Assembly (NCBI GenBank): GCA_963848295.1
Contig: CAWKDB010000010.1
Location: forward strand, 800,001-864,000
Origin: an uncultured delta proteobacterium
GTDB taxonomy: Bacteria; Myxococcota_A; Polyangia; Haliangiales; Haliangiaceae
Length of the DNA stretch: 64,000 nt
Direction of reading: 5' to 3'
The translations under genes were made by a program, and so were the position numbers. The notes below the pieces were generated by a model. The model was given only the letters and a program-made list of their open reading frames with translations, did no database searches and had not been told where the DNA came from. Of the stretch, positions 43,749-58,700 are shown piece after piece. Position 1 is the first letter of the stretch, and the number at the start of each line of letters is the position of its first letter.

Positions 43749-45653
43749 GGCGTCGCGGCGATCGTGATCGCCAGCTTGGCCGCGGCTTCGCTCGCGCATG
43801 CCGACGGCGCCGATCCGGTCACCGCGCATGCGACCGCCGCCGAGCTCGGCGTGCTCCAACACATCGACCGCGAGGAGTACATCAAGGCGCGCACCGACGC
43901 CGAGGCGATCCTCGATCACGATCCGAAGTCGTTCATCGCGAACTGGGCGATGGCGCGGATCCAGCACGACGAAGAGGGCAACCACGCGCGCGCTCTCTAC
44001 TACGTCCACATCGCGGAGGAGTCGCTGCACACCCAGTTTGGCGACGACCCGAGCTGGGACAAGAAGCTGCTGCTCGAAGAGTTCTGGATCAACCACGAGA
44101 TGGATCGGATGGCCGATGCGCTCGAGGTCCTCGATCGCTACGAGAGCCGCTACGGTAAGGGTCAGGCGTGGCTGCGGATCTGGCCGACGTTCAAGCTCGG
44201 CCGGATGGACGAGGCGCGTGCGATCGGCAAGAAGCTCACGACCTCCGACGATCCGAACGAGCGGCGCGAGGCGTACAACGGCCTGCTCTCGATCGAGTTC
44301 GAAGCCCACGACCGGAAGGCCGCGTACAAGTGGGCCGAGCTCGGGCTCGACGCGACGCAGGGCAAGAGCTGCACGCTCGTGCGCAACGCGGCGGGCACGG
44401 CGTACACGATGTTCCGGCTGCGCGAAGCCGAGGAGCTCGGCCTCAAGGCGCACGAAGCCGAGGAGCAAGACTGCGACGGCGCCGGCTACGATCAGCTCGC
44501 CGGGCTCTATCTGATCGAAGGCGAGTTCCAGAAGGCGATCGCCGCGCTCAAGTCGCTCAAAGAAGTCCCGATCCCGAAGCGCTATCGCCCGCACTACGCG
44601 CTCGAGCGCCGCGCGATCCTCGCCGACATCCTCTACACGCTCGGCAAGGTCGACGACGCCGAGCGGCTCGCGAGCGAGGTCTACGGCCTACCCGAGCGCA
44701 CCGGCATGACCTCGGGCAGCAAGCGCGCGGCCGACATCGTGCGCAGCATTCGCTACTGGATGGCGCTCGACGCGAAGTTGAACCGCCAGGCGGAGAAGGC
44801 CGCGTATGGGCCGCTGTTCACCGGCGTCTCGCTCGAGAACGTCCAGCTCGCGTTCGTGCGCTGGGCGCTGCGCCGCGAGATCATCCAGCTCGTCGACGAC
44901 GACACGCTGCTCGTCACGCTGATCCGGCCGAACCTCGGCGAGCTCTACGAGGATGCCTCGTGGCGGCGGATGCAGATGATCGACATCCTCGGCACCGGCG
45001 TCGTGCGCGACGCGGTCGCGGCGGCGCGCAAGGCCGACGAGGGCACGCCCGAGGCGACGCCGTACCTCGATCTGTTCGATGCCGAGATCTCGTATCGCGA
45101 GGGCAACCTCGCCGGCGCGCTGCATCAAGCGAGCGCCGCGCTCGACCACCTGCCGAAAGAAGAAGCGACGCTGCGTTGGCGCACGCTCGCGTGGGAGGCC
45201 GACGCTCGACGCCAGCTCGGCGACGCCGACGCTGCGGCTCAGCTCGATCACGAGGTGCTTCAGAAGTTCCCTTCGGTGCTGCGCATCCTCGACCTGTCGC
45301 TGCCGATCTCGACGAAGAGCGACGGCTCGGAGCTCGCCGACGATGCGGTGCGCCGGGTCGGCAAGTCGCCGCGGTTCACGACCGAGAGCAACGCGCCGTT
45401 CGTGGTGAGCGCTTCGACCCGCGCCGGCGTGGTCGAGCTGTGCCTGACCGACGCGAGCGGGTTTTCGTTCGCGTGCGCGAGCGGCGACAAGCACATGACC
45501 GGCGACGACGAGGTGATCTCCGCGCTCGATGCGTTCCACGACGCGGCGTTTTCGCCGAAGATCTCGCTCGATCAGAGCGACCTCAACAGCCTCGACGGCA
45601 GTCCGGTGCGCGCGAGCTCCGATCAGGTGCTGAAGGGCATCCTCGGACCATGA
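43740..45653 (+). CDS. Secreted TPR-like alpha-solenoid protein
   Basis: GTG start; signal peptide MRVGVAAIVIASLAAASLAHA; TPR-like helical repeats. Confidence 0.7.
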   Translation: MRVGVAAIVIASLAAASLAHADGADPVTAHATAAELGVLQHIDREEYIKARTDAEAILDHDPKSFIANWAMARIQHDEEGNHARALYYVHIAEESLHTQFGDDPSWDKKLLLEEFWINHEMDRMADALEVLDRYESRYGKGQAWLRIWPTFKLGRMDEARAIGKKLTTSDDPNERREAYNGLLSIEFEAHDRKAAYKWAELGLDATQGKSCTLVRNAAGTAYTMFRLREAEELGLKAHEAEEQDCDGAGYDQLAGLYLIEGEFQKAIAALKSLKEVPIPKRYRPHYALERRAILADILYTLGKVDDAERLASEVYGLPERTGMTSGSKRAADIVRSIRYWMALDAKLNRQAEKAAYGPLFTGVSLENVQLAFVRWALRREIIQLVDDDTLLVTLIRPNLGELYEDASWRRMQMIDILGTGVVRDAVAAARKADEGTPEATPYLDLFDAEISYREGNLAGALHQASAALDHLPKEEATLRWRTLAWEADARRQLGDADAAAQLDHEVLQKFPSVLRILDLSLPISTKSDGSELADDAVRRVGKSPRFTTESNAPFVVSASTRAGVVELCLTDASGFSFACASGDKHMTGDDEVISALDAFHDAAFSPKISLDQSDLNSLDGSPVRASSDQVLKGILGP

Positions 45654-47416
45654 GGCTCGGCTTCACGCTTGGTGTGTTGCTAGCGGTCACCTCGGTCGCG
45701 TCCGCAGATCCGGGCTCGGGCTCGGGCTCGGATGCCGTCAAGGCTCCCGATCCGAACGCGCCGAAGCCCAAGCTTCGCAACTGGCCGAGCGGCGCGACCG
45801 CCGAGCTCGCCGAGCAGACCAACGGCCAGAACGACGGTCTGTACGAGCGCTGGGCGCAGAACTGCCAGATCGTCGTGCGCGGCCACTTCAAGGCCGGCAA
45901 GCGCGATGGCGCGTGGATCGATTGGACGCCGAAGGGCCAGAAGCGCGACGAGGGGACCTACACCGCGAACCTCCGCAACGGGCCATGGACGCTGTACGGC
46001 CGCAACGGCGAGAAACAAATGCAGGGGCCGTTCGTCGACAATGTCGCCAACGGCAAGTTCACCGAGTGGTTCGCCGCCGGCGCGAAGTGGCGCGAGTTCG
46101 ACATGAAAGCCGGCGAGCGCGACACGCCGGAGGCGATCGCGTGTCGCGCGAAGGCCGGCGATTGGGTCGTCGACTACGAACAAGCCGAAGAGGGCTGCAC
46201 GATCGCCGGGTCACGCCAGGGCCCGTGGACCCGCTACTACCTCGGCGGCACGGTGCGCACGGTGACGCCGTATGTCGACAATCAGATCGAGGGCACGGTC
46301 CGCGACCTCCATCCGACCGGCGAGCTGTTGCATCAGGGGACGTATCACCACGGCGTGCCCGACGGCGTGCACACCTGGCAGGACGCGACCGGCCGACCGT
46401 ACGGCACGTCCACGATCACGAACGGCACCGGCGATTGGACGACGTACTTCCCCGACGGCAAGGTCTCCGCGAGCGGCCGGTTCGTGCAAGGCCGGATGAA
46501 GGGCGTGTGGACGACGTACTTCGACAACGGCGCGAAGCAAGAAGAAGCGACCTACGACGGCATGCCGAACGGTCCCTATCGCAAGTGGTACAAGACCGGC
46601 GAGCTCGGGGTCACCGGCCAGATGCGCGAGGGTGCGCGCGACGGGATGTGGGTCGCGTACTGGGCGAACGGCAACGTCGAGTGGTCCGGGCAATACGATC
46701 AGGACGCGCGCACCGGCATCTGGGTGATGTTCGCGTACACCGGCACGCTCCAGTCGATCGGCCAGATGGAGGCCGACACGGCGACCGGCGCGTGGATGTA
46801 CTTCCACGACAACGGCAAGCCCCAGGACATCGGCATCATGGTCGCCGACAAGCGGATCGGCTCGTGGCAGGAGTTCTGGGCCGACGGCACGCCGTGGCGC
46901 ACCGCGACCTACGAGGACGGGATCGAGGTCGGTCCCGCGTCGCAACAGTGCGCGACGATCGGTGGCACGTGGGTCGGCGATGCGACCAAGCGGATGCTCG
47001 GCTGCCAAGTGTGCCGCGCGAAGCCGGACGACTCGATCGACCAGATCCAGACCGGGACGTGGACATGGTGGCACGCGAACGGCGAGATCGAGAAGCAGGG
47101 TGCGCTCGACGACGGCAAGCAGATCGGCCACTGGGCGTTCTTCTACGACAACGGCAAGCCGATGCTGAGCGGCGACTACGCCGCGGGCGCCGAGCGCGGG
47201 CCATGGACCGGCGCGTACCGCAACGGCCAACGCCGGTTCGAAGGCAACTATGCCGACGGCAACCCGGTCGGCGAATGGACGAGCTGGCAAGATAACGGGG
47301 CGGTCCTGTCGCACGGGAGTTACGGCAGCGACGGCCAGAAGATCGGCACCTGGACCTACTACGACACCAACCCCGCGGGCGAACAGGTATCCTATAAGGA
47401 GGGGAAACCTCAGTAA
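45650..47416 (+). CDS. Secreted MORN-variant repeat protein (YwqK-like)
   Basis: ATGA overlap; signal peptide; many G.W..(Y/W)..NG.....G.Y repeats. Confidence 0.85.
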   Translation: MRLGFTLGVLLAVTSVASADPGSGSGSDAVKAPDPNAPKPKLRNWPSGATAELAEQTNGQNDGLYERWAQNCQIVVRGHFKAGKRDGAWIDWTPKGQKRDEGTYTANLRNGPWTLYGRNGEKQMQGPFVDNVANGKFTEWFAAGAKWREFDMKAGERDTPEAIACRAKAGDWVVDYEQAEEGCTIAGSRQGPWTRYYLGGTVRTVTPYVDNQIEGTVRDLHPTGELLHQGTYHHGVPDGVHTWQDATGRPYGTSTITNGTGDWTTYFPDGKVSASGRFVQGRMKGVWTTYFDNGAKQEEATYDGMPNGPYRKWYKTGELGVTGQMREGARDGMWVAYWANGNVEWSGQYDQDARTGIWVMFAYTGTLQSIGQMEADTATGAWMYFHDNGKPQDIGIMVADKRIGSWQEFWADGTPWRTATYEDGIEVGPASQQCATIGGTWVGDATKRMLGCQVCRAKPDDSIDQIQTGTWTWWHANGEIEKQGALDDGKQIGHWAFFYDNGKPMLSGDYAAGAERGPWTGAYRNGQRRFEGNYADGNPVGEWTSWQDNGAVLSHGSYGSDGQKIGTWTYYDTNPAGEQVSYKEGKPQ

Positions 47417-47449
47417 CTCGAGTCGCGGGTGAGACGTAGCACGATGGGC

Positions 47450-48412
47450 ATGAGCGACAAGATTCCGGACAGCGAGATCACTCCGCGCTCGGTCTACTTC
47501 AACCGCCGCACGTTCATGCGCGGCGGCATCGTCGCGGCGAGCGCAGCGGGCACGGCCCTGCTCTATCGCAAGCTCAACGGCGTCAACCTCTCGGTCGACG
47601 AGCGCCCGGCACTGCCCGATCTCGTTCCGGCGCCGCACGCGAACGGGTTCTGGACCGACGAAGCGATGACGCCGCGCGCCTCGATCCTCAATTACAACAA
47701 CTTCTACGAGTTCACCACGAACAAGGACGGGGTCGCGGCGGCGGCGAAGGACTTCAAGACCGACGGCTGGAAGATCGACGTCGGCGGGCTGTGCAACAAG
47801 CCGCACGTGTTCGACCTCGACGAGTTTCGCAAGATCGCGCCACCCGAGGAGCGGGTCTATCGCCATCGCTGCGTCGAGGCGTGGTCGATGGTCGTGCCGT
47901 GGGCCGGCATCCCGCTGTACAAGCTACTCGAGAAGGTCGAACCGACGAGCGCGGCGAAGTACGTCGCGTTCGAAACGCTACTCGATCCGAAGCGGATGCC
48001 GGGTCAGAACGGCGATGCCCTCGCGTGGCCGTACATCGAGGGCCTGCGGATCGACGAAGCGATGCACCCGCTCGCGCTGCTCGCAACGGGACTCTACGGC
48101 CAGGAGTTGCCGCCGCAGGACGGCGCGCCGGTCAAGCTCGTGCTGCCGTGGAAGTACGGGTTCAAGGGCATCAAGTCGATCGTCAAGGTCACGCTCGTCG
48201 CGACCCAGCCGCCGACGTCGTGGAATCGTTATGCACCGAAGGAGTACGGGTTCTACGGCAACGTCAACCCGCACCACGATCACCCGCGGTGGAGCCAGGC
48301 GACCGAGCAGCGGATCGGTGACATCGGCCGGCGCATGACGCTGATGTTCAACGGCTACGGCGACCAGGTCGCGAGTCTCTACACCGGGATGAACCTCGAT
48401 GTCGACTTCTAG
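47450..48412 (+). CDS. msrP: Periplasmic protein-methionine-sulfoxide reductase, catalytic molybdo-subunit
   Basis: SEITP, Tat motif NRRTF, YNNFYEF, HRCVEAWSMV, QDGAPVKLVLPWKYGFKGIKSI, HPRWSQATE. Confidence 0.95.
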   Translation: MSDKIPDSEITPRSVYFNRRTFMRGGIVAASAAGTALLYRKLNGVNLSVDERPALPDLVPAPHANGFWTDEAMTPRASILNYNNFYEFTTNKDGVAAAAKDFKTDGWKIDVGGLCNKPHVFDLDEFRKIAPPEERVYRHRCVEAWSMVVPWAGIPLYKLLEKVEPTSAAKYVAFETLLDPKRMPGQNGDALAWPYIEGLRIDEAMHPLALLATGLYGQELPPQDGAPVKLVLPWKYGFKGIKSIVKVTLVATQPPTSWNRYAPKEYGFYGNVNPHHDHPRWSQATEQRIGDIGRRMTLMFNGYGDQVASLYTGMNLDVDF

Positions 48413-50174
48413 CGCGGCGCCGCTTCGCGCCGTGGGCCCGGTCGGCAAGTTGATCGACACCCACTTCGCGAAGTGGCTGATGATCTTGAACGGCCTCGTC
48501 CCCGCCGCGCTGCTCGTGTGGGATGCCGAGCACCATCAACTCGGCGTCAACGAGGTCAACTTCGCGATCCGCACGACCGGGCTCGTCGGCCTCGTCTGCC
48601 TGATGCTGTCGCTCGCGATCACGCCGGTGCGCAAGCTCACCGGATGGAACGGCTTGATCGCGGTCCGGCGCAACCTCGGCGTGCTCGGGTTCTTCTACAT
48701 CTCGCTCCACTTCGTGATCTTTTTCTGGTGGGATCGCGAGGGCAGCGTCCGCTCCACCGTCGACGAGATCATCAAGCGCGAGTACCTGTGGTACGGGTTC
48801 GGCGCGCTCGTCGCGATGATCCCGCTCGCGATCACGTCGACCGACGGCATGGTCACCCGGCTCGGAGCGAAGCGCTGGAAGCTGCTCCACAAGCTCGCGT
48901 ACCTCGTCGTGATCGCCGGAGTCATTCACTACTACAAGCTCGTCAAGTCGGACACGACCCAGCCGAAGGCGTTCGCGTACGTTCTGGCCGCGCTGCTGTC
49001 GTATCGCGTCGTCATGCACTACGTCGACGTGCGCCGAGAGCTCGCCGCGACCCACGCGAAGCTGCTCGCGGCGAAGAGCGCGGCGCCGAAGAAAAAGAGG
49101 TTCTGGCAGGGCGAGCTCAAGATCGCGCGGATCTTCGACGAGACGCCCGACGTCAAGACGATCCGGTTCGTCGCGCCCGCCGGCGGCCCGTTGCCGTTCG
49201 AGCACATCGCCGGTCAGTACATCAACCTCCAGCTCACGATCGACGGCAAGCGCGTCAACCGGTCGTACACGATGTCGTCGTCGCCGACCCGCAACGCGTA
49301 CGTCGAGATCTCGGTGAAGAAGGCCGCGAACGGCTACGGCTCCAAGCACGTGCACGAGACGTTCAAAGAAGGTCAGCTCGTCAAGGTCGCCGCACCTTCC
49401 GGCAAGTTCTACTTCGCCGGCACGGAGGCGCCGCGGGTCGTGCTCGTTGCAGGAGGCATCGGCATCACGCCGATGATGTCGGTCGTGCGCAGCCTCACCG
49501 ATCGCGGCTGGGCCGGCGACATGTACCTGTTGTTCTCGGTGCGCACGCAGCGAGACATCGTGTTCCGCGAGGAGCTCGACTATCTGCAAAAGCGCTACCC
49601 GAACCTCCACGTGTGCGTGACCCTGAGCAAGGAGACCGATCCGGCGTGGACCGGCGCGCGCGGCAACATCACGAAGCAACTGATCACCAGCCTCGTGCCC
49701 GACCTCGCGCATGGCCCGGTGATGCTGTGCGGCCCGGATCCGATGATGACCGCGATGCGCGCGCTGTTCGTCGAGCTCGGCGTGCCGGATGCCGAGATCC
49801 ATCAAGAGGCGTTCGTGTCTCCTCCGACACCGACCGAGGCCGATCCGGCCGCCGACGGCGCCGCGATGGTCGATGCGCTCGCCGCGATGACCGGTGAAGC
49901 CGGCGACGGTGCGCCTGCGAACGTCACGTTCAAGCGCGACGGCAAGACCGCCGAGATCACGCCCGAGCTGAGCCTGCTCGAGTGCGCCGAAGAAGCGGGC
50001 GTCGAGATTCCGTTCGAGTGCCGGTCCGGCATCTGCGGCCAGTGCAAGACCAAGCTGCTGTCCGGCCGCGTGCGGATGGAGGTCCAAGACGCGCTGACCG
50101 CGGCCGACAAGTCACGCGGGCTGGTGCTCGCGTGCCAGGCGCACGCGGTTGGCGATATCGTGGTGGACGCTTAG
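48399..50174 (+). CDS. msrQ: MsrQ heme-b membrane subunit fused to a FAD/NAD(P)-binding reductase and a [2Fe-2S] ferredoxin
   Basis: SLAITP, RRNLG, YISLHF, PLAITS, WKLLHKLAY, IHY; then RSYTMSS, AGGIGITPMMS, LCGPDPMM, HQEAF; CRSGICGQC...LAC. Confidence 0.9.
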   Translation: MSTSSAAPLRAVGPVGKLIDTHFAKWLMILNGLVPAALLVWDAEHHQLGVNEVNFAIRTTGLVGLVCLMLSLAITPVRKLTGWNGLIAVRRNLGVLGFFYISLHFVIFFWWDREGSVRSTVDEIIKREYLWYGFGALVAMIPLAITSTDGMVTRLGAKRWKLLHKLAYLVVIAGVIHYYKLVKSDTTQPKAFAYVLAALLSYRVVMHYVDVRRELAATHAKLLAAKSAAPKKKRFWQGELKIARIFDETPDVKTIRFVAPAGGPLPFEHIAGQYINLQLTIDGKRVNRSYTMSSSPTRNAYVEISVKKAANGYGSKHVHETFKEGQLVKVAAPSGKFYFAGTEAPRVVLVAGGIGITPMMSVVRSLTDRGWAGDMYLLFSVRTQRDIVFREELDYLQKRYPNLHVCVTLSKETDPAWTGARGNITKQLITSLVPDLAHGPVMLCGPDPMMTAMRALFVELGVPDAEIHQEAFVSPPTPTEADPAADGAAMVDALAAMTGEAGDGAPANVTFKRDGKTAEITPELSLLECAEEAGVEIPFECRSGICGQCKTKLLSGRVRMEVQDALTAADKSRGLVLACQAHAVGDIVVDA

Positions 50175-50177
50175 CGC

Positions 50178-51374
50178 GTGACCGAGCTCGACGTCGTGAT
50201 CGTCGGCGGTGGCCCGGCCGGGCTGTCCACCGCGCTGCACGTCCACGCGCTCGCGCCGCACGCGCGCATCATCGTGCTCGAGGCTGCGACCTACCCGCGC
50301 GAGAAGATCTGCGCCGGCGGCATCGGCGCGCGCGGTCTGACGATCCTCGGGGAGCTCGGCATCGAGCTCGACTGCCCGATGGTCAACATCGATGCGCTCG
50401 CCGTTCGCGTCGGTGGCGAGACGATCGTGACCCGCGAGCGCGACCTCGGCGTCGTCGTCCGCCGCGTCGAGTTCGACCACTCGCTCGCCCGCGCCGCGAT
50501 CGCGCGGGGCATCGCGGTCCGGGACGGCTGCGCGGTCACGGCAATCGCGATCGACGACGCCGGCGCGACCGTCGAGACTTCCCTCGGCGAAGCGTACCGA
50601 GCGCGCGCGATCATCGGCGCCGATGGCGTCTCGGGCATCGTCCGGCGCGCATGCGGCTTTCCGCGCGGAGCGCTGCGTGCGCAGGTGCTCGAGCTCGACA
50701 CCGAGGCCGTCGCCGCCGACCAGCCACGCGACACGCTCGTGTTCGACTTCACGCTGCGCGATCTCCGCGGCTACGCGTGGGACTTCCCGACGTTCGTCGG
50801 CGGTGAAGCGAAGGTCTGTCGCGGCACCTACGCGCTGCTCGATGGCGGCGAGCGCGGGATCACGCCGCGCGCGGCGATCGAGCGCTACCTCGCGGACCGC
50901 GGGCTCGCGATCGGCGACTACCGGATCAAGCAGTTCGCCGAGCGCGGCTTCGAGCCGGGCGCCGCGATCTCGGCGCCGCGGGTCTTGCTCGTCGGAGAGG
51001 CTGCCGGCATCGACATCGCGACCGGCGAAGGCATCGCGCAGGCGATCGAGTACGGCAAGGCCGCCGGTGGCTATCTCGTGCGCGCGCTAGAGCGCGATGA
51101 CCTGCGCTTCTCGAGCTGGCGTGGCCACGTCGATCGCCGTCACGTCGGCTGGCAGCTGCGGATCCGCCACGCGTGCTATCGCGCGTTCTACGGCTCCCAT
51201 CGCGACGCGGTCGAGCGCATCATGCCGCGCATCGGCAAGCTGTTCCGCGTCGGGGTCCAGGACTTCGCAGGCCGCCCGCTGAGCAAGCTCGCGATCGCGC
51301 AAGGGGCCGCGCAGTTTCTCGCCGCACTCGCGCGCGAGGGCATCAGTTCGTCACGAGGCCCCACCACAGTGTGA
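50178..51374 (+). CDS. FAD-dependent oxidoreductase, geranylgeranyl-reductase-like
   Basis: DVVIVGGGPAG, YPREKICAGGI, IGADG, GYAWDFP, LVGEAAG, TGEGIAQA. Confidence 0.85.
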   Translation: MTELDVVIVGGGPAGLSTALHVHALAPHARIIVLEAATYPREKICAGGIGARGLTILGELGIELDCPMVNIDALAVRVGGETIVTRERDLGVVVRRVEFDHSLARAAIARGIAVRDGCAVTAIAIDDAGATVETSLGEAYRARAIIGADGVSGIVRRACGFPRGALRAQVLELDTEAVAADQPRDTLVFDFTLRDLRGYAWDFPTFVGGEAKVCRGTYALLDGGERGITPRAAIERYLADRGLAIGDYRIKQFAERGFEPGAAISAPRVLLVGEAAGIDIATGEGIAQAIEYGKAAGGYLVRALERDDLRFSSWRGHVDRRHVGWQLRIRHACYRAFYGSHRDAVERIMPRIGKLFRVGVQDFAGRPLSKLAIAQGAAQFLAALAREGISSSRGPTTV

Positions 51375-55787: not shown

Positions 55788-58700
55788 TTAGAACGTCAGA
55801 CGGACGCCGAGGCGGGCGCTGAGCGGCGAGTACAGAGCGGTCGGGTTGTGGAAGTTCGGATTGCGACCGATCGGCGTGCCGTTCTCGACGCCGGTCGTGT
55901 CGACCGTCTTCAACCAGATCAGATCGGAGTACGTGCCGCCGGCGATCGGGTTCGCGTTCTGCTGCACGCCCGGCATGCCGGCAGCCGACAGCTTGTAGTA
56001 GGGTGCGTAGTTGTTATCGACGTCCGCCGTGCCCTGGTCGTTGTAGACGTTGTAGATGTCCGCGAACACCTCGAGCCTCATGTTCTTCCGCAGCTTGCGT
56101 CCGTAGCCGACGTGGACGTCGAGGCCGTGGTCGAAGTCGCTGCGACCGAGCTCGCCGCGCGGCAACAGGAACGACTCGTTCGGGCCGTACAGCCAGTGAC
56201 CGGCGAGCGCATTCTCCGGGATACCCGACAGCGCGCGGAACCGGACGCCGACCGTGAGGTCGCCGTACTGCTTGAGGTCGAACGTGTAGTAACCGTCGAT
56301 CTTGATGTAGTGAGGGCGATCGGTCGGCAGCGGGCCGGCGTGGTTCGCGAGCAGCTCGATCAAGTCGAACTGCGACGAGATGTTCGGATCGAGCTGGCCG
56401 TTGTCGTACGACACGAGGCCGGGGTAGTTGCCCTCGGTCCGCGAGTACGTGTAGCTCGCCTGTAGATAAAGCTTCTTCGAGAACCGGCGGGTCAGCGTGA
56501 ACTGCAGCGCGTTGTACACCCGGGTCGGGTGATCGAAGATGTTGATACCGTTGAACAGCTGGAGCTGGTGGGTGAGCCGGGCCTTTTCGGCCGGGTCATC
56601 CGTCATGTTGATCCGCTGCTGGAACGCGGCGGCCTCGGACTGCGAGAACTCGCCCGGGTTCGAGATGATGTACGTGTTCGCGCCGTCGGTCGACACGTCC
56701 TCGATCACGCGACCGAGCGTGCGGTTCTGGTACGACACGCCGAGCTTGAGGTCGTCGATGACCTCGTACTCGAAGCCGGCGACGATCTCGTCCATGTACT
56801 GCGCCTTGATGCCCGGGGCGACGAGATCACCGCTCGCGCCGACCAGCGCTGCTTCAGTCCGCCGCCCACCGGGGCTCCGGTCTGGGTCGTCGGAGTGATG
56901 CACGAGTTGCCGTTGACGCCGCCGATCTTCGGATCGACAGCCGGCGCCATGCCCATGTTCGTGCAGGTCGACGCGGTGTACAGCTGCTCGTACTCGACTT
57001 CGCCGCCGAACGAGCGGTCGTTGATGTCGAGCGGAATCGACTCGTAGAACCGACCCCAGTTCGCGTAGATCTTCGAGCGACCTTCCTTCGTCCAGTCGTA
57101 GAGCAGGCCGATGCGCGGCGCGTAGTTGCCGGTCAGCGTCATCGCGTCCTTGCCCAGCAGATTTCCGGTCAGCGGATCGACCGTGCCCTGCAGGAAGCTC
57201 GCGTAGCGCAGCCGCTGCTCTTCGTAGCGCAGGCCGGCGTTGAGCGTCAGGTTCGGCTGGATCTGCCACGAATCGCGGAGGTAAGCGGCCCAGTTGAACG
57301 TCTCGCCTTGGATCTGGGTCGCCCGCGAGCCCGGCGTGCCGCCGAGGTACGCGCAGTCGAAGTGCTGGGTCTTGTCCTTGGCGTTCGTCGGGTTCGGGTT
57401 CGCGGTGTTGCACTGCTGGTTGAAGAAGCCGGGGTCGGTGTTGGTCGGCGAGCTACCCTGAACGCCGTTGATCTCCTGGCCGGCGAGCTGCGCGTAGCGG
57501 ATCGTGTCGATGACGTTCGCGCCGATGTCGTTGAACTCGATCGCGGCGCCGCCGGACAGCAAGCGCGCCTTGTTCGTCGTGTTGTCCTCGGCGTCGATGC
57601 CGGCCTTGATCTCGTGGCTGCCTGCCGCCTTGACGCGCTCGGTGATCTGAGCGCCGCGCTCTTGCGCTCCTCGGTGTCGCGCTGGAGGCGCGCCCGGGAC
57701 CGCCGATGGAGTACGCTGGCCGCCGTCATCGGGCAGTTCGTGATGTACGGATAGACGTCGTTCGAGCCGGGCGGGCCGTCGGTGCAGCCCTTCGCCACGT
57801 TGATGTTGCTCGGCTCGTAGCCCGCCGACCATAACCCGAGGCTGCCGTCGGTCAGGACCTGCGCCGGCTGCTGCTCGAGCGCGGGATCGAGCGCGTCGCC
57901 CGTGGTGTACTCGTGGTGCCAACCGACGATCGCCTCGACCTCGGTCTTGTTGTCGTTGAACTTCGAGGTCCACTTGCCGGACAGGTCGATGACCGTGTCG
58001 GTCGTCTTGTAGCCGTTGTCGGCGGGGCCGAAGATCGCCGGGCGTGGCTCGACGCACTCGGCATGCGCCTGGAACGAGATCTGGCCCTGGTGCTCCGGGG
58101 TCGCCGCGTAGTTGAGCTTGCCGAGGATGTTGTAGGTGTGCGCGGTCGGGCTGCGCATCTGGCTGTCGACCGTGTCGGTGATGTAGAAGCCGGTCTTCGG
58201 ATCGACGTCGGCGACGCCATCGGCGATAGCCGCCTTGGGCGACGAGCTTCGGGTTACACACGGTCTGCGTACCGTCGGACTTCGTCATCCGGCAGTCGGT
58301 CTGACTCTTGACCGTGCGCGTGATGTCGTTCTGCACGAACGTCGGGTCGAAGCCGATGAAGAACCACAGCTTGTCCTTGATGATCGGACCGCCGAGCTCG
58401 AATCCGAAGTCGCCGTTGTAGTTGACGTTGTTGACCGCGTCGATCGACGGACGCGTTGACCGGCGCGAGGTGCTGCGCGGCGGTCAAGAACCCGGGCTGG
58501 TAGTAGCCCCACACCGAGCCCTTGAACTCGTTCGAGCCGGTCTTCGTGACGACGTTGACGACGCCGCCGGTCGCGCGACCGTACTCGGCGTTGTAGCCAC
58601 CGGTGATGACCTCGATCTCTTCGATGAAGTCGTTGACGACCGGGGAGCCGACCGTGCCGAGCGTCAGGCCCGTCGTGTTGACGCCGTCGACGATGTACTG

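Follow-up and report, generated by a model that had tools for sequence, protein, structure and literature searches.

We analysed a 64,000-nucleotide stretch (the window) of contig CAWKDB010000010.1 (assembly GCA_963848295.1, positions 800,001 to 864,000), from an uncultured delta proteobacterium of the Haliangiaceae, in which the gene directly behind msrP encodes the membrane cytochrome MsrQ fused, in one chain, to an FNR-type flavin/NAD(P) reductase module and a plant-type [2Fe-2S] ferredoxin. The fusion is conserved, and is neither chance nor misassembly. NAD(P)H probably feeds MsrQ through the fused module, whatever the route; for the route itself we lean towards a serial chain from NAD(P)H through FAD, [2Fe-2S], FMN and haem b to MsrP, and it is somewhat probable that the [2Fe-2S] cluster is the point of hand-over to MsrQ. 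The two genes and their parts are as follows:

47450..48412, +: msrP, encoding a periplasmic molybdoenzyme methionine-sulfoxide reductase of 320 residues (model NF003767, 439.4 bits, cut-off 207)
47504..47518, +: twin-arginine motif RRTFM of MsrP, predicted Tat export (from the translation; aligned with the E. coli RR)
47870..47872, +: Cys141 of MsrP (aligned with E. coli Cys146)
48399..50174, +: fused gene MsrQ-FNR-[2Fe-2S], 591 residues (single stop-free frame and Pfam matches)
48450..49034, +: MsrQ membrane domain, six predicted helices (NF003831, E. coli MsrQ alignment, conservation and structure model)
49035..49103, +: basic stalk, predicted cytoplasmic, into which the last membrane helix is predicted to run, up to residue 228 (model and charge)
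49104..49418, +: flavin-binding beta-barrel, RSYT motif at 49260 (PF00970)
49419..49820, +: NAD(P)-binding domain, GGIGITP and CGP (PF00175)
49821..49913, +: flexible Ala/Pro-rich linker (predicted local distance difference test, pLDDT, below 50 at residues 473-502)
49914..50171, +: plant-type [2Fe-2S] ferredoxin domain with C541, C546, C549 and C579 (PF00111)

An earlier note, made from the letters of this DNA, had described a 591-residue one-frame gene after msrP with MsrQ, FAD/NAD and ferredoxin parts, and the frame, the Pfam matches and the motifs confirm that description. The matches, all above cut-off, are to Ferric_reduct (residues 60-174), FAD_binding_6 (250-338), NAD_binding_1 (349-454) and Fer2 (514-583), while the motifs RSYTMSS, AGGIGITP and CGP lie at residues 288-294, 351-358 and 444-446, followed by C541-X4-C546-X2-C549 and C579. 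The fusion starts 14 nt inside the 3' end of msrP, and its N-terminus is identical in position in a relative at 90% identity (P0004). The msrP product is 50% identical to E. coli MsrP; its RRTFM is presumably a twin-arginine export signal, and we take Cys141 to be a molybdenum ligand like E. coli Cys146. An in-frame ATG at 47444 offers an alternative msrP start.

That the assembly had joined msrQ to a separate reductase gene was weighed as an explanation, as frameshifts are seen at other loci (L053 and L236). The same four Pfam domains were found in all of the best 120 of 1021 protein matches, at 62-92% identity, and 52 of 53 related loci are open from the first module to the ferredoxin, the frameshifted L053 being the other. 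Because the fusion is thus conserved across relatives, an artefact is refuted, and we give it next to no probability. Moreover, a contig from run X1 covers 49011-49361, including the junction at 49020-49110, with zero differences at a depth of 4.6, which lends weak independent support; the run may share species or sample with the source genome. A contig from run X3, which comes from a relative, crosses 48756-49258 with gaps that offset one another, the shares contributed by runs X2-X5 are small, and no contig spans the whole stretch. G+C at third codon positions is 0.89-0.94 across the domains and 0.91 in the linker behind the membrane domain, so that codon bias is even over the junction.

The 53 related loci came from a genome scan and bear mostly Kofleriaceae or other Myxococcota labels, with 10 from Planctomycetota, two from Acidobacteriota and one from Beijerinckiaceae. 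The co-occurrence with msrP that the earlier note proposed to check was found throughout: of the 53 loci, four start at the edge of a contig, and msrP lies directly upstream in each of the 49 whose upstream side is covered. The same holds for 24 of another 25 loci that have the MsrQ domain, the exception (L189) lying at a contig edge, and for 29 of 29 more, these three sets overlapping in some genomes. Alignment rows here and below likewise overlap and are kin, and their counts express conservation, not independent events. No conserved third gene was found among the 53 loci beyond close relatives. Within the family of the window, the membrane domain was matched in 71 of 137 other genomes, of which 70 (69 without the unpublished G336) carry an in-frame fusion, truncated in some by the end of a contig, and one (G357) has a stand-alone form. 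The fusion is the usual form of MsrQ in this family. On the other hand, it is the exception across the phylum, where MsrP scored above cut-off in 68 of 301 genomes and MsrQ was matched in 47 of the 67 others; among 30 loci fetched, three were fused and 27 stand-alone, with 17 remaining matches outside the count. The other 20 of the 67 MsrP-positive genomes (e.g., G220, G240, G292, G181 and G106) gave no match to the MsrQ query at 1e-8, and their MsrP may pair with a divergent or different membrane partner. A scan centred on a planctomycete genome matched 32 of the 301 genomes in its class strongly, and each of the 29 loci that it added carries msrP and all modules. The protein of locus L179 (genome G494), which has msrP upstream, is identical to P0255, recorded under Alienimonas californiensis. 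In the genome G000 (85% complete) the fusion is the only PF01794 gene found. Fused msrPQ of the Myxococcota type also occurs under Beijerinckiaceae or Acidobacteriota labels (L041; L019, L020, L204), by transfer or mis-binning, and the genomes of L019 and L041 carry additional PF01794 genes.

The membrane domain passes the curated MsrQ model NF003831 narrowly (133 bits, cut-off 130) and is 33% identical to E. coli MsrQ. Residues R77, R78, H91, L131, S135, W147, H151 and H164 of the E. coli protein correspond here to R90, R91, H104, L143, S147, W160, H164 and H177, and these eight haem/FMN residues are retained in 82-84 of 84 fused loci: the predicted haem ligands H104 and H177 (E. coli H91 and H164, on the periplasmic side) in all 84, and, in the predicted FMN pocket, R90, R91, L143 and W160 in 84, S147 in 83 and H164 in 82, with Gln in two. 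Distant representatives keep the set too, one with Lys in place of R91. E. coli MsrQ holds one haem (~-250 mV) and one FMN (~-340 mV), and the FMN is lost in R77A, R78A and H151A, according to PMC12525009. Since all eight E. coli residues are kept, we add an FMN to the chain: the membrane domain is likely of the one-haem/one-FMN type, and its FMN would belong between the cytoplasmic module and the haem.

Six hydropathy peaks between residues 23 and 209 also appear as helices in the structure model, and basic loops lie behind helices 2, 4 and 6. By the positive-inside rule, basic loops face the cytoplasm. Because they follow these three helices, the C-terminus is placed inside and the reductase is predicted to be cytoplasmic; the charge distribution speaks against a periplasmic reductase, which the earlier note had named as a finding that would undo its reading. 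The stalk is basic (9 K+R against 2 D+E in residues 202-236), and its length varies (R203-W236 spacing 15-53, median 33, in 172 rows). A seventh hydropathy peak (residues 347-365) coincides with the hydrophobic core of the NAD domain, a known false membrane signal (PMC3591440). The structure model is confident per domain (pLDDT 87.7), extends the last membrane helix into the stalk and leaves the linker before the ferredoxin disordered. When the membrane domain and the ferredoxin were predicted as a complex, FMN and 2Fe-2S included, the score was 0.27 against a mark of 0.32 with the controls unfolded, and the result is not used as evidence. No fusion-specific docking signature could be isolated, the 15 positions typical of fused forms being mostly common to the stand-alone forms of the same clade.

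In the reductase module, R288, S289, Y290 and T291, as well as C444, G445 and P446, are invariant in 173 of 173 rows, and so are the cluster ligands C541, C546 and C549; C579 is kept in 171 of 171. The linker between flavin/NAD and ferredoxin parts varies (F472-F511 spacing 17-51 in 173 rows). The module shares 44% identity with a membrane-anchored subfamily (L086-L088, below), 31% with Hcr, 29% with PaaE and 25% with Fre. An orthologue of Fre is ruled out by this 25% identity, by the score on the Fre model (NF005963, 79 bits, cut-off 230) and by the added Fer2 domain. At the head of the fold matches stand 7ylr and phthalate dioxygenase reductase (PDR; 2pia), with chains of SpNOX also among the matches, and the named PDR-class models all score below cut-off (GbcB 239.5 of 500, PRK10684 206.4 of 383 and PaaE 200.3 of 420.8 bits). 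By sequence and fold, therefore, the module classes as PDR-type, orthologous to no named member. The earlier note had seen in the gene a Rosetta-stone fusion for an MsrQ-Fre system resembling NADPH oxidase (NOX); this holds for an NAD(P)H-dependent, FNR-type donor, and fails for Fre itself, with which the module shares no more than the FNR superfamily. Position 411 holds no conserved basic residue and position 412 is Asp or Glu in 161 of 173 rows, a pattern that hints at NADH. That the module would take NADH over NADPH, and FAD over FMN, are weak guesses.

Regarding the history of the fusion, all trees were quick searches supported only by the Shimodaira-Hasegawa-like approximate likelihood ratio test (SH-aLRT). 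The fused MsrQ domains form one branch, which also holds stand-alone forms (SH-aLRT 95-100 in three trees, weak in another), and one gain followed by several losses would be the simplest reading. In one locus (L137 3013-4083) MsrQ is followed by a stop and then a partial FNR remnant. Since it was lost in some lineages, the module is optional: MsrQ of this lineage can persist without it. Where the module is present it is nearly always whole: among 106 distinct loci with in-frame MsrQ and FNR motifs, 104 have the ferredoxin motif, and of the two exceptions one runs into the end of its contig and the other (L236) has ferredoxin DNA in another frame. A split form, with msrQ beside a separate FNR-ferredoxin gene, was not found in the ~1.5 kb flanks of the 27 stand-alone phylum loci, and in 38 metagenome loci whose downstream DNA reaches 1300 nt or more the six reductase matches are five fused genes and the L137 remnant. 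The protein P0311 joins an MsrQ of ordinary type to a reductase from a cytochrome-fused clade; for the reductase a single origin is rejected by the approximately unbiased (AU) test (p 0.0016), suggesting a second fusion or a module swap. Queried against 301 genomes, P0311 gave two loci, both of the main family. P0364, also an ordinary-type MsrQ, carries a more distant FNR-[2Fe-2S] module and, like P0311, is possibly an independent fusion.

How might electrons pass through such a chain? By analogy with PDR, NAD(P)H would give a hydride to the module flavin, which would pass single electrons to the [2Fe-2S] cluster; the ferredoxin domain, on its flexible linker, could swing to the FMN pocket in the membrane, from which electrons would reach the single haem b and then periplasmic MsrP, and MsrP would repair oxidised methionines outside the cytoplasm. 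The earlier note had drawn a single-chain wire from NAD(P)H through FAD, [2Fe-2S] and heme b to MsrP, of which the fusion, the MsrP partner and, most likely, the NAD(P)H feed stand, while the FMN had been omitted. The wire may, as that note also proposed, work independently of the respiratory chain.

Several points weigh against the serial chain and its supposed history. The clusters of PDR-class reductases lie near -170 to -210 mV, and an electron step from such a cluster to FMN at -340 mV would be uphill, a real difficulty for a serial path. The structure model leaves the arrangement of the domains unfixed (predicted template-modelling score 0.51). Ubiquinone binds to E. coli MsrQ, and MsrPQ activity is lost when quinone synthesis is disrupted by mutation (PMC12525009); quinones may still be relevant to MsrPQ. 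A clean stand-alone MsrQ (L090 4602-5246, genome G357) is nested among fused Kofleriaceae, and of 80 metagenome loci retrieved with a stand-alone relative, in a clade whose named members are labelled Verrucomicrobiota, 67 are without the module, eight are fused and five unclear. The joint retention of FNR and ferredoxin may be just block inheritance. As for separate fusions, AU tests on the membrane domain fail to reject one origin for P0311 (p 0.40) and P0364 (p 0.22), as does that on the reductase for P0364 (p 0.17); the groups tested were defined after the first tree had been inspected, and L053 was omitted from the membrane-domain test.

The uphill step bears directly on an alternative in which the FNR part would reduce the FMN of MsrQ itself, by contact or flavin exchange, like a tethered Fre, leaving the cluster (which near -200 mV would lie uphill of FMN) a side buffer or passenger. 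The FAD domain adjoins the membrane stalk, as in NOX, and Fre reduces MsrQ through FMN without an iron-sulfur cluster (PMC12525009). Such a passenger is hard to square with four invariant cluster cysteines, nor is there any intact fusion lacking only the ferredoxin among the 106 loci or among seven short or odd representatives, which appeared frameshifted, truncated or complete; we hold direct reduction to be unlikely, while still a serious competitor of the serial chain.

A continued supply of the haem by quinol, with the module re-reducing MsrQ-bound quinone or serving a cytoplasmic partner, seems to us quite improbable. It would fit the genetics that tie MsrPQ to quinone synthesis, the ubiquinone bound in E. 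coli (PMC12525009), and also the intact residue set in 57-58 of 58 in-clade stand-alone loci after repeated module loss. Yet the published potentials make quinol a poor donor (quinones are too positive, and the bound ubiquinone is more likely an acceptor; PMC12525009), the neighbour scan gave no partner oxygenase or other conserved gene, and nothing is missing from the FMN pocket, the site of entry from the cytoplasm. More improbable still is that the protein is mainly a NOX-like oxidase or ferric reductase, delivering electrons to oxygen or metal rather than MsrP: its ferric reductase domain (FRD), FAD and NAD domains follow the NOX order, SpNOX chains are among the fold matches and autoxidation of reduced MsrQ has been considered (PMC12525009), but the place of the first haem His is taken by Arg (R90 in all 84 fused loci), against four His in long forms (PMC3591440), and msrP stands upstream wherever upstream DNA is present.

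The module is not confined to MsrQ. Of the 150 best representatives, 22 combine MsrQ with both FNR and ferredoxin, and in 72 the module sits behind another N-terminal region of at least 100 residues: i) 49 are Met/His-rich, mostly with one or two hydrophobic segments; ii) five have a different Ferric_reduct domain, with four His in P0280 (P0280, P0322, P0331, P0343 and P0347); iii) five have a multi-helix domain, in some of them accompanied by a dihaem cytochrome c (P0354, P0357, P0370, P0382 and P0385). The module thus seems to be a mobile unit that feeds membrane redox proteins. In three loci (L086 3826-8377, L087 1-2872 and L088 3596-8084) the module gene is followed by a His-bearing membrane gene, without Pfam match above cut-off, and then by a multihaem cytochrome c gene, and a Met/His-rich membrane-anchored protein is either joined to the module or encoded ahead of it, its N-terminal region being the one shared by the 49 representatives under i); in L088 the run adjoins genes that, from their sequence, resemble those of a heavy-metal ATPase and of CusA. 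This gene run may encode a hitherto undescribed wire from NAD(P)H to the periplasm.

Around the two genes in the window, a geranylgeranyl-reductase-family gene (50178-51374, +; TIGR02032 129.5 bits, below the cut-off of 158.8) begins 3 nt past the fusion stop and is present in only one of the 53 related loci (L001). The gene 5' of msrP (~45650-47416, +) has a signal-like N-terminus and many short Gly/Trp repeats, which we would call MORN-like, and was not found in the 53 loci. Farther off (55788-58336, -), two overlapping open reading frames resemble, by eye, halves of one outer-membrane receptor gene, suggesting an assembly frameshift. A scan for sigma-70-like promoters gave 0 sites, the only terminator-like match falls within a gene and scores below the shuffle mean, and none of the seven public runs listed for the stretch is an RNA run.

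In the literature searched, we found no paper discussing an MsrQ-FNR-ferredoxin fusion behind msrP. A 2004 title by von Rozycki reportedly concerns the fusion of YedZ with electron carriers and could affect novelty, and automatic protein names at JGI describe the fusion already. FRD-FNR fusions are well known in general, and the MsrPQ variant likely works, as its domains suggest, like the proposed MsrQ-Fre pair in a single chain. The architecture was probably drawn in a 2013 survey (PMC3591440): the legend of its Fig. 3 lists a Fer2 domain in architecture M8, though the exact layout may differ, and the stretch of its dataset entry D2QW70_PIRSD is, compared by eye, the same as the membrane domain of the fused locus L207. 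In the sections of that survey seen here, long-form FRDs are described as having four His, and no connection is drawn between such a fusion and YedY/MsrP.

Where MsrPQ takes its electrons from is debated, with genetic work favouring quinones and biochemical work NAD(P)H and Fre (PMC12525009); the background given in the earlier note, that quinones feed MsrQ, was thus already disputed in print. A conserved fusion of a one-haem/FMN MsrQ to a reductase behind msrP, in several phyla, offers independent evolutionary evidence for a cytoplasmic donor, and is a natural test of the dispute. The whole path could also be assayed or solved in one polypeptide; as of PMC12525009, there is no experimental structure of MsrQ. 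Genetics may be feasible because named planctomycete species are among the recorded carriers (P0255, D2QW70). Tentatively, and with some doubt, we propose a third independently evolved single-chain design for moving electrons of NAD(P)H across a membrane, beside NOX and STEAP, with four cofactors leading to MsrP and a module plugged in at least twice. If true, NAD(P)H, not quinol, would be the natural donor of MsrPQ, and the same module would power a wider set of membrane wires (with multihaem cytochrome c, four-His FRD and dihaem cytochrome c).

Compared with known systems, the closest is E. coli MsrPQ (YedYZ), which has in common the msrP-msrQ order, MsrP at 50% identity and the eight haem/FMN residues. 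The NAD(P)H-FMN-haem flow proposed for it with Fre (PMC12525009) is like the flow proposed here, whereas its donor is separate and without iron-sulfur domain and the donor here is fused, with [2Fe-2S], and 25% identical. Canonical MsrQ is the membrane domain only, stated to lack a cytosolic dehydrogenase domain (PMC12525009), while the fusion adds ~380 residues and three domains. The PDR class (PDR, Hcr, PaaE and GbcB) shares the flavin-NAD-[2Fe-2S] order and fold; unlike it, the fusion falls below every NCBIfam cut-off, is joined to a membrane cytochrome and has no conserved oxygenase neighbour. MamZ, a transporter fused to a YedZ-like domain, was rejected, as NF040998 gave 98.5 bits (cut-off 650) with the membrane domain alone matched. 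Bacterial NOX and long-form FRD proteins share membrane FRD, FAD and NAD(P) domains in one chain; theirs have four His or two haems (PMC3591440 and PMC5676040), in contrast to Arg90, the added ferredoxin and the msrP neighbour here, and a four-histidine bacterial NOX is ruled out by Arg90 at the first haem position. Finally, STEAP2-4 resemble the fusion in combining, within one chain, a dehydrogenase and a membrane domain that holds one haem and a flavin (PMC12525009). The STEAP dehydrogenase is N-terminal and of PF03807 (PMC3591440), a family with no Pfam match in the fusion, whereas that of the fusion is C-terminal, FNR-type and accompanied by [2Fe-2S]; the likeness to STEAP is likely convergent.

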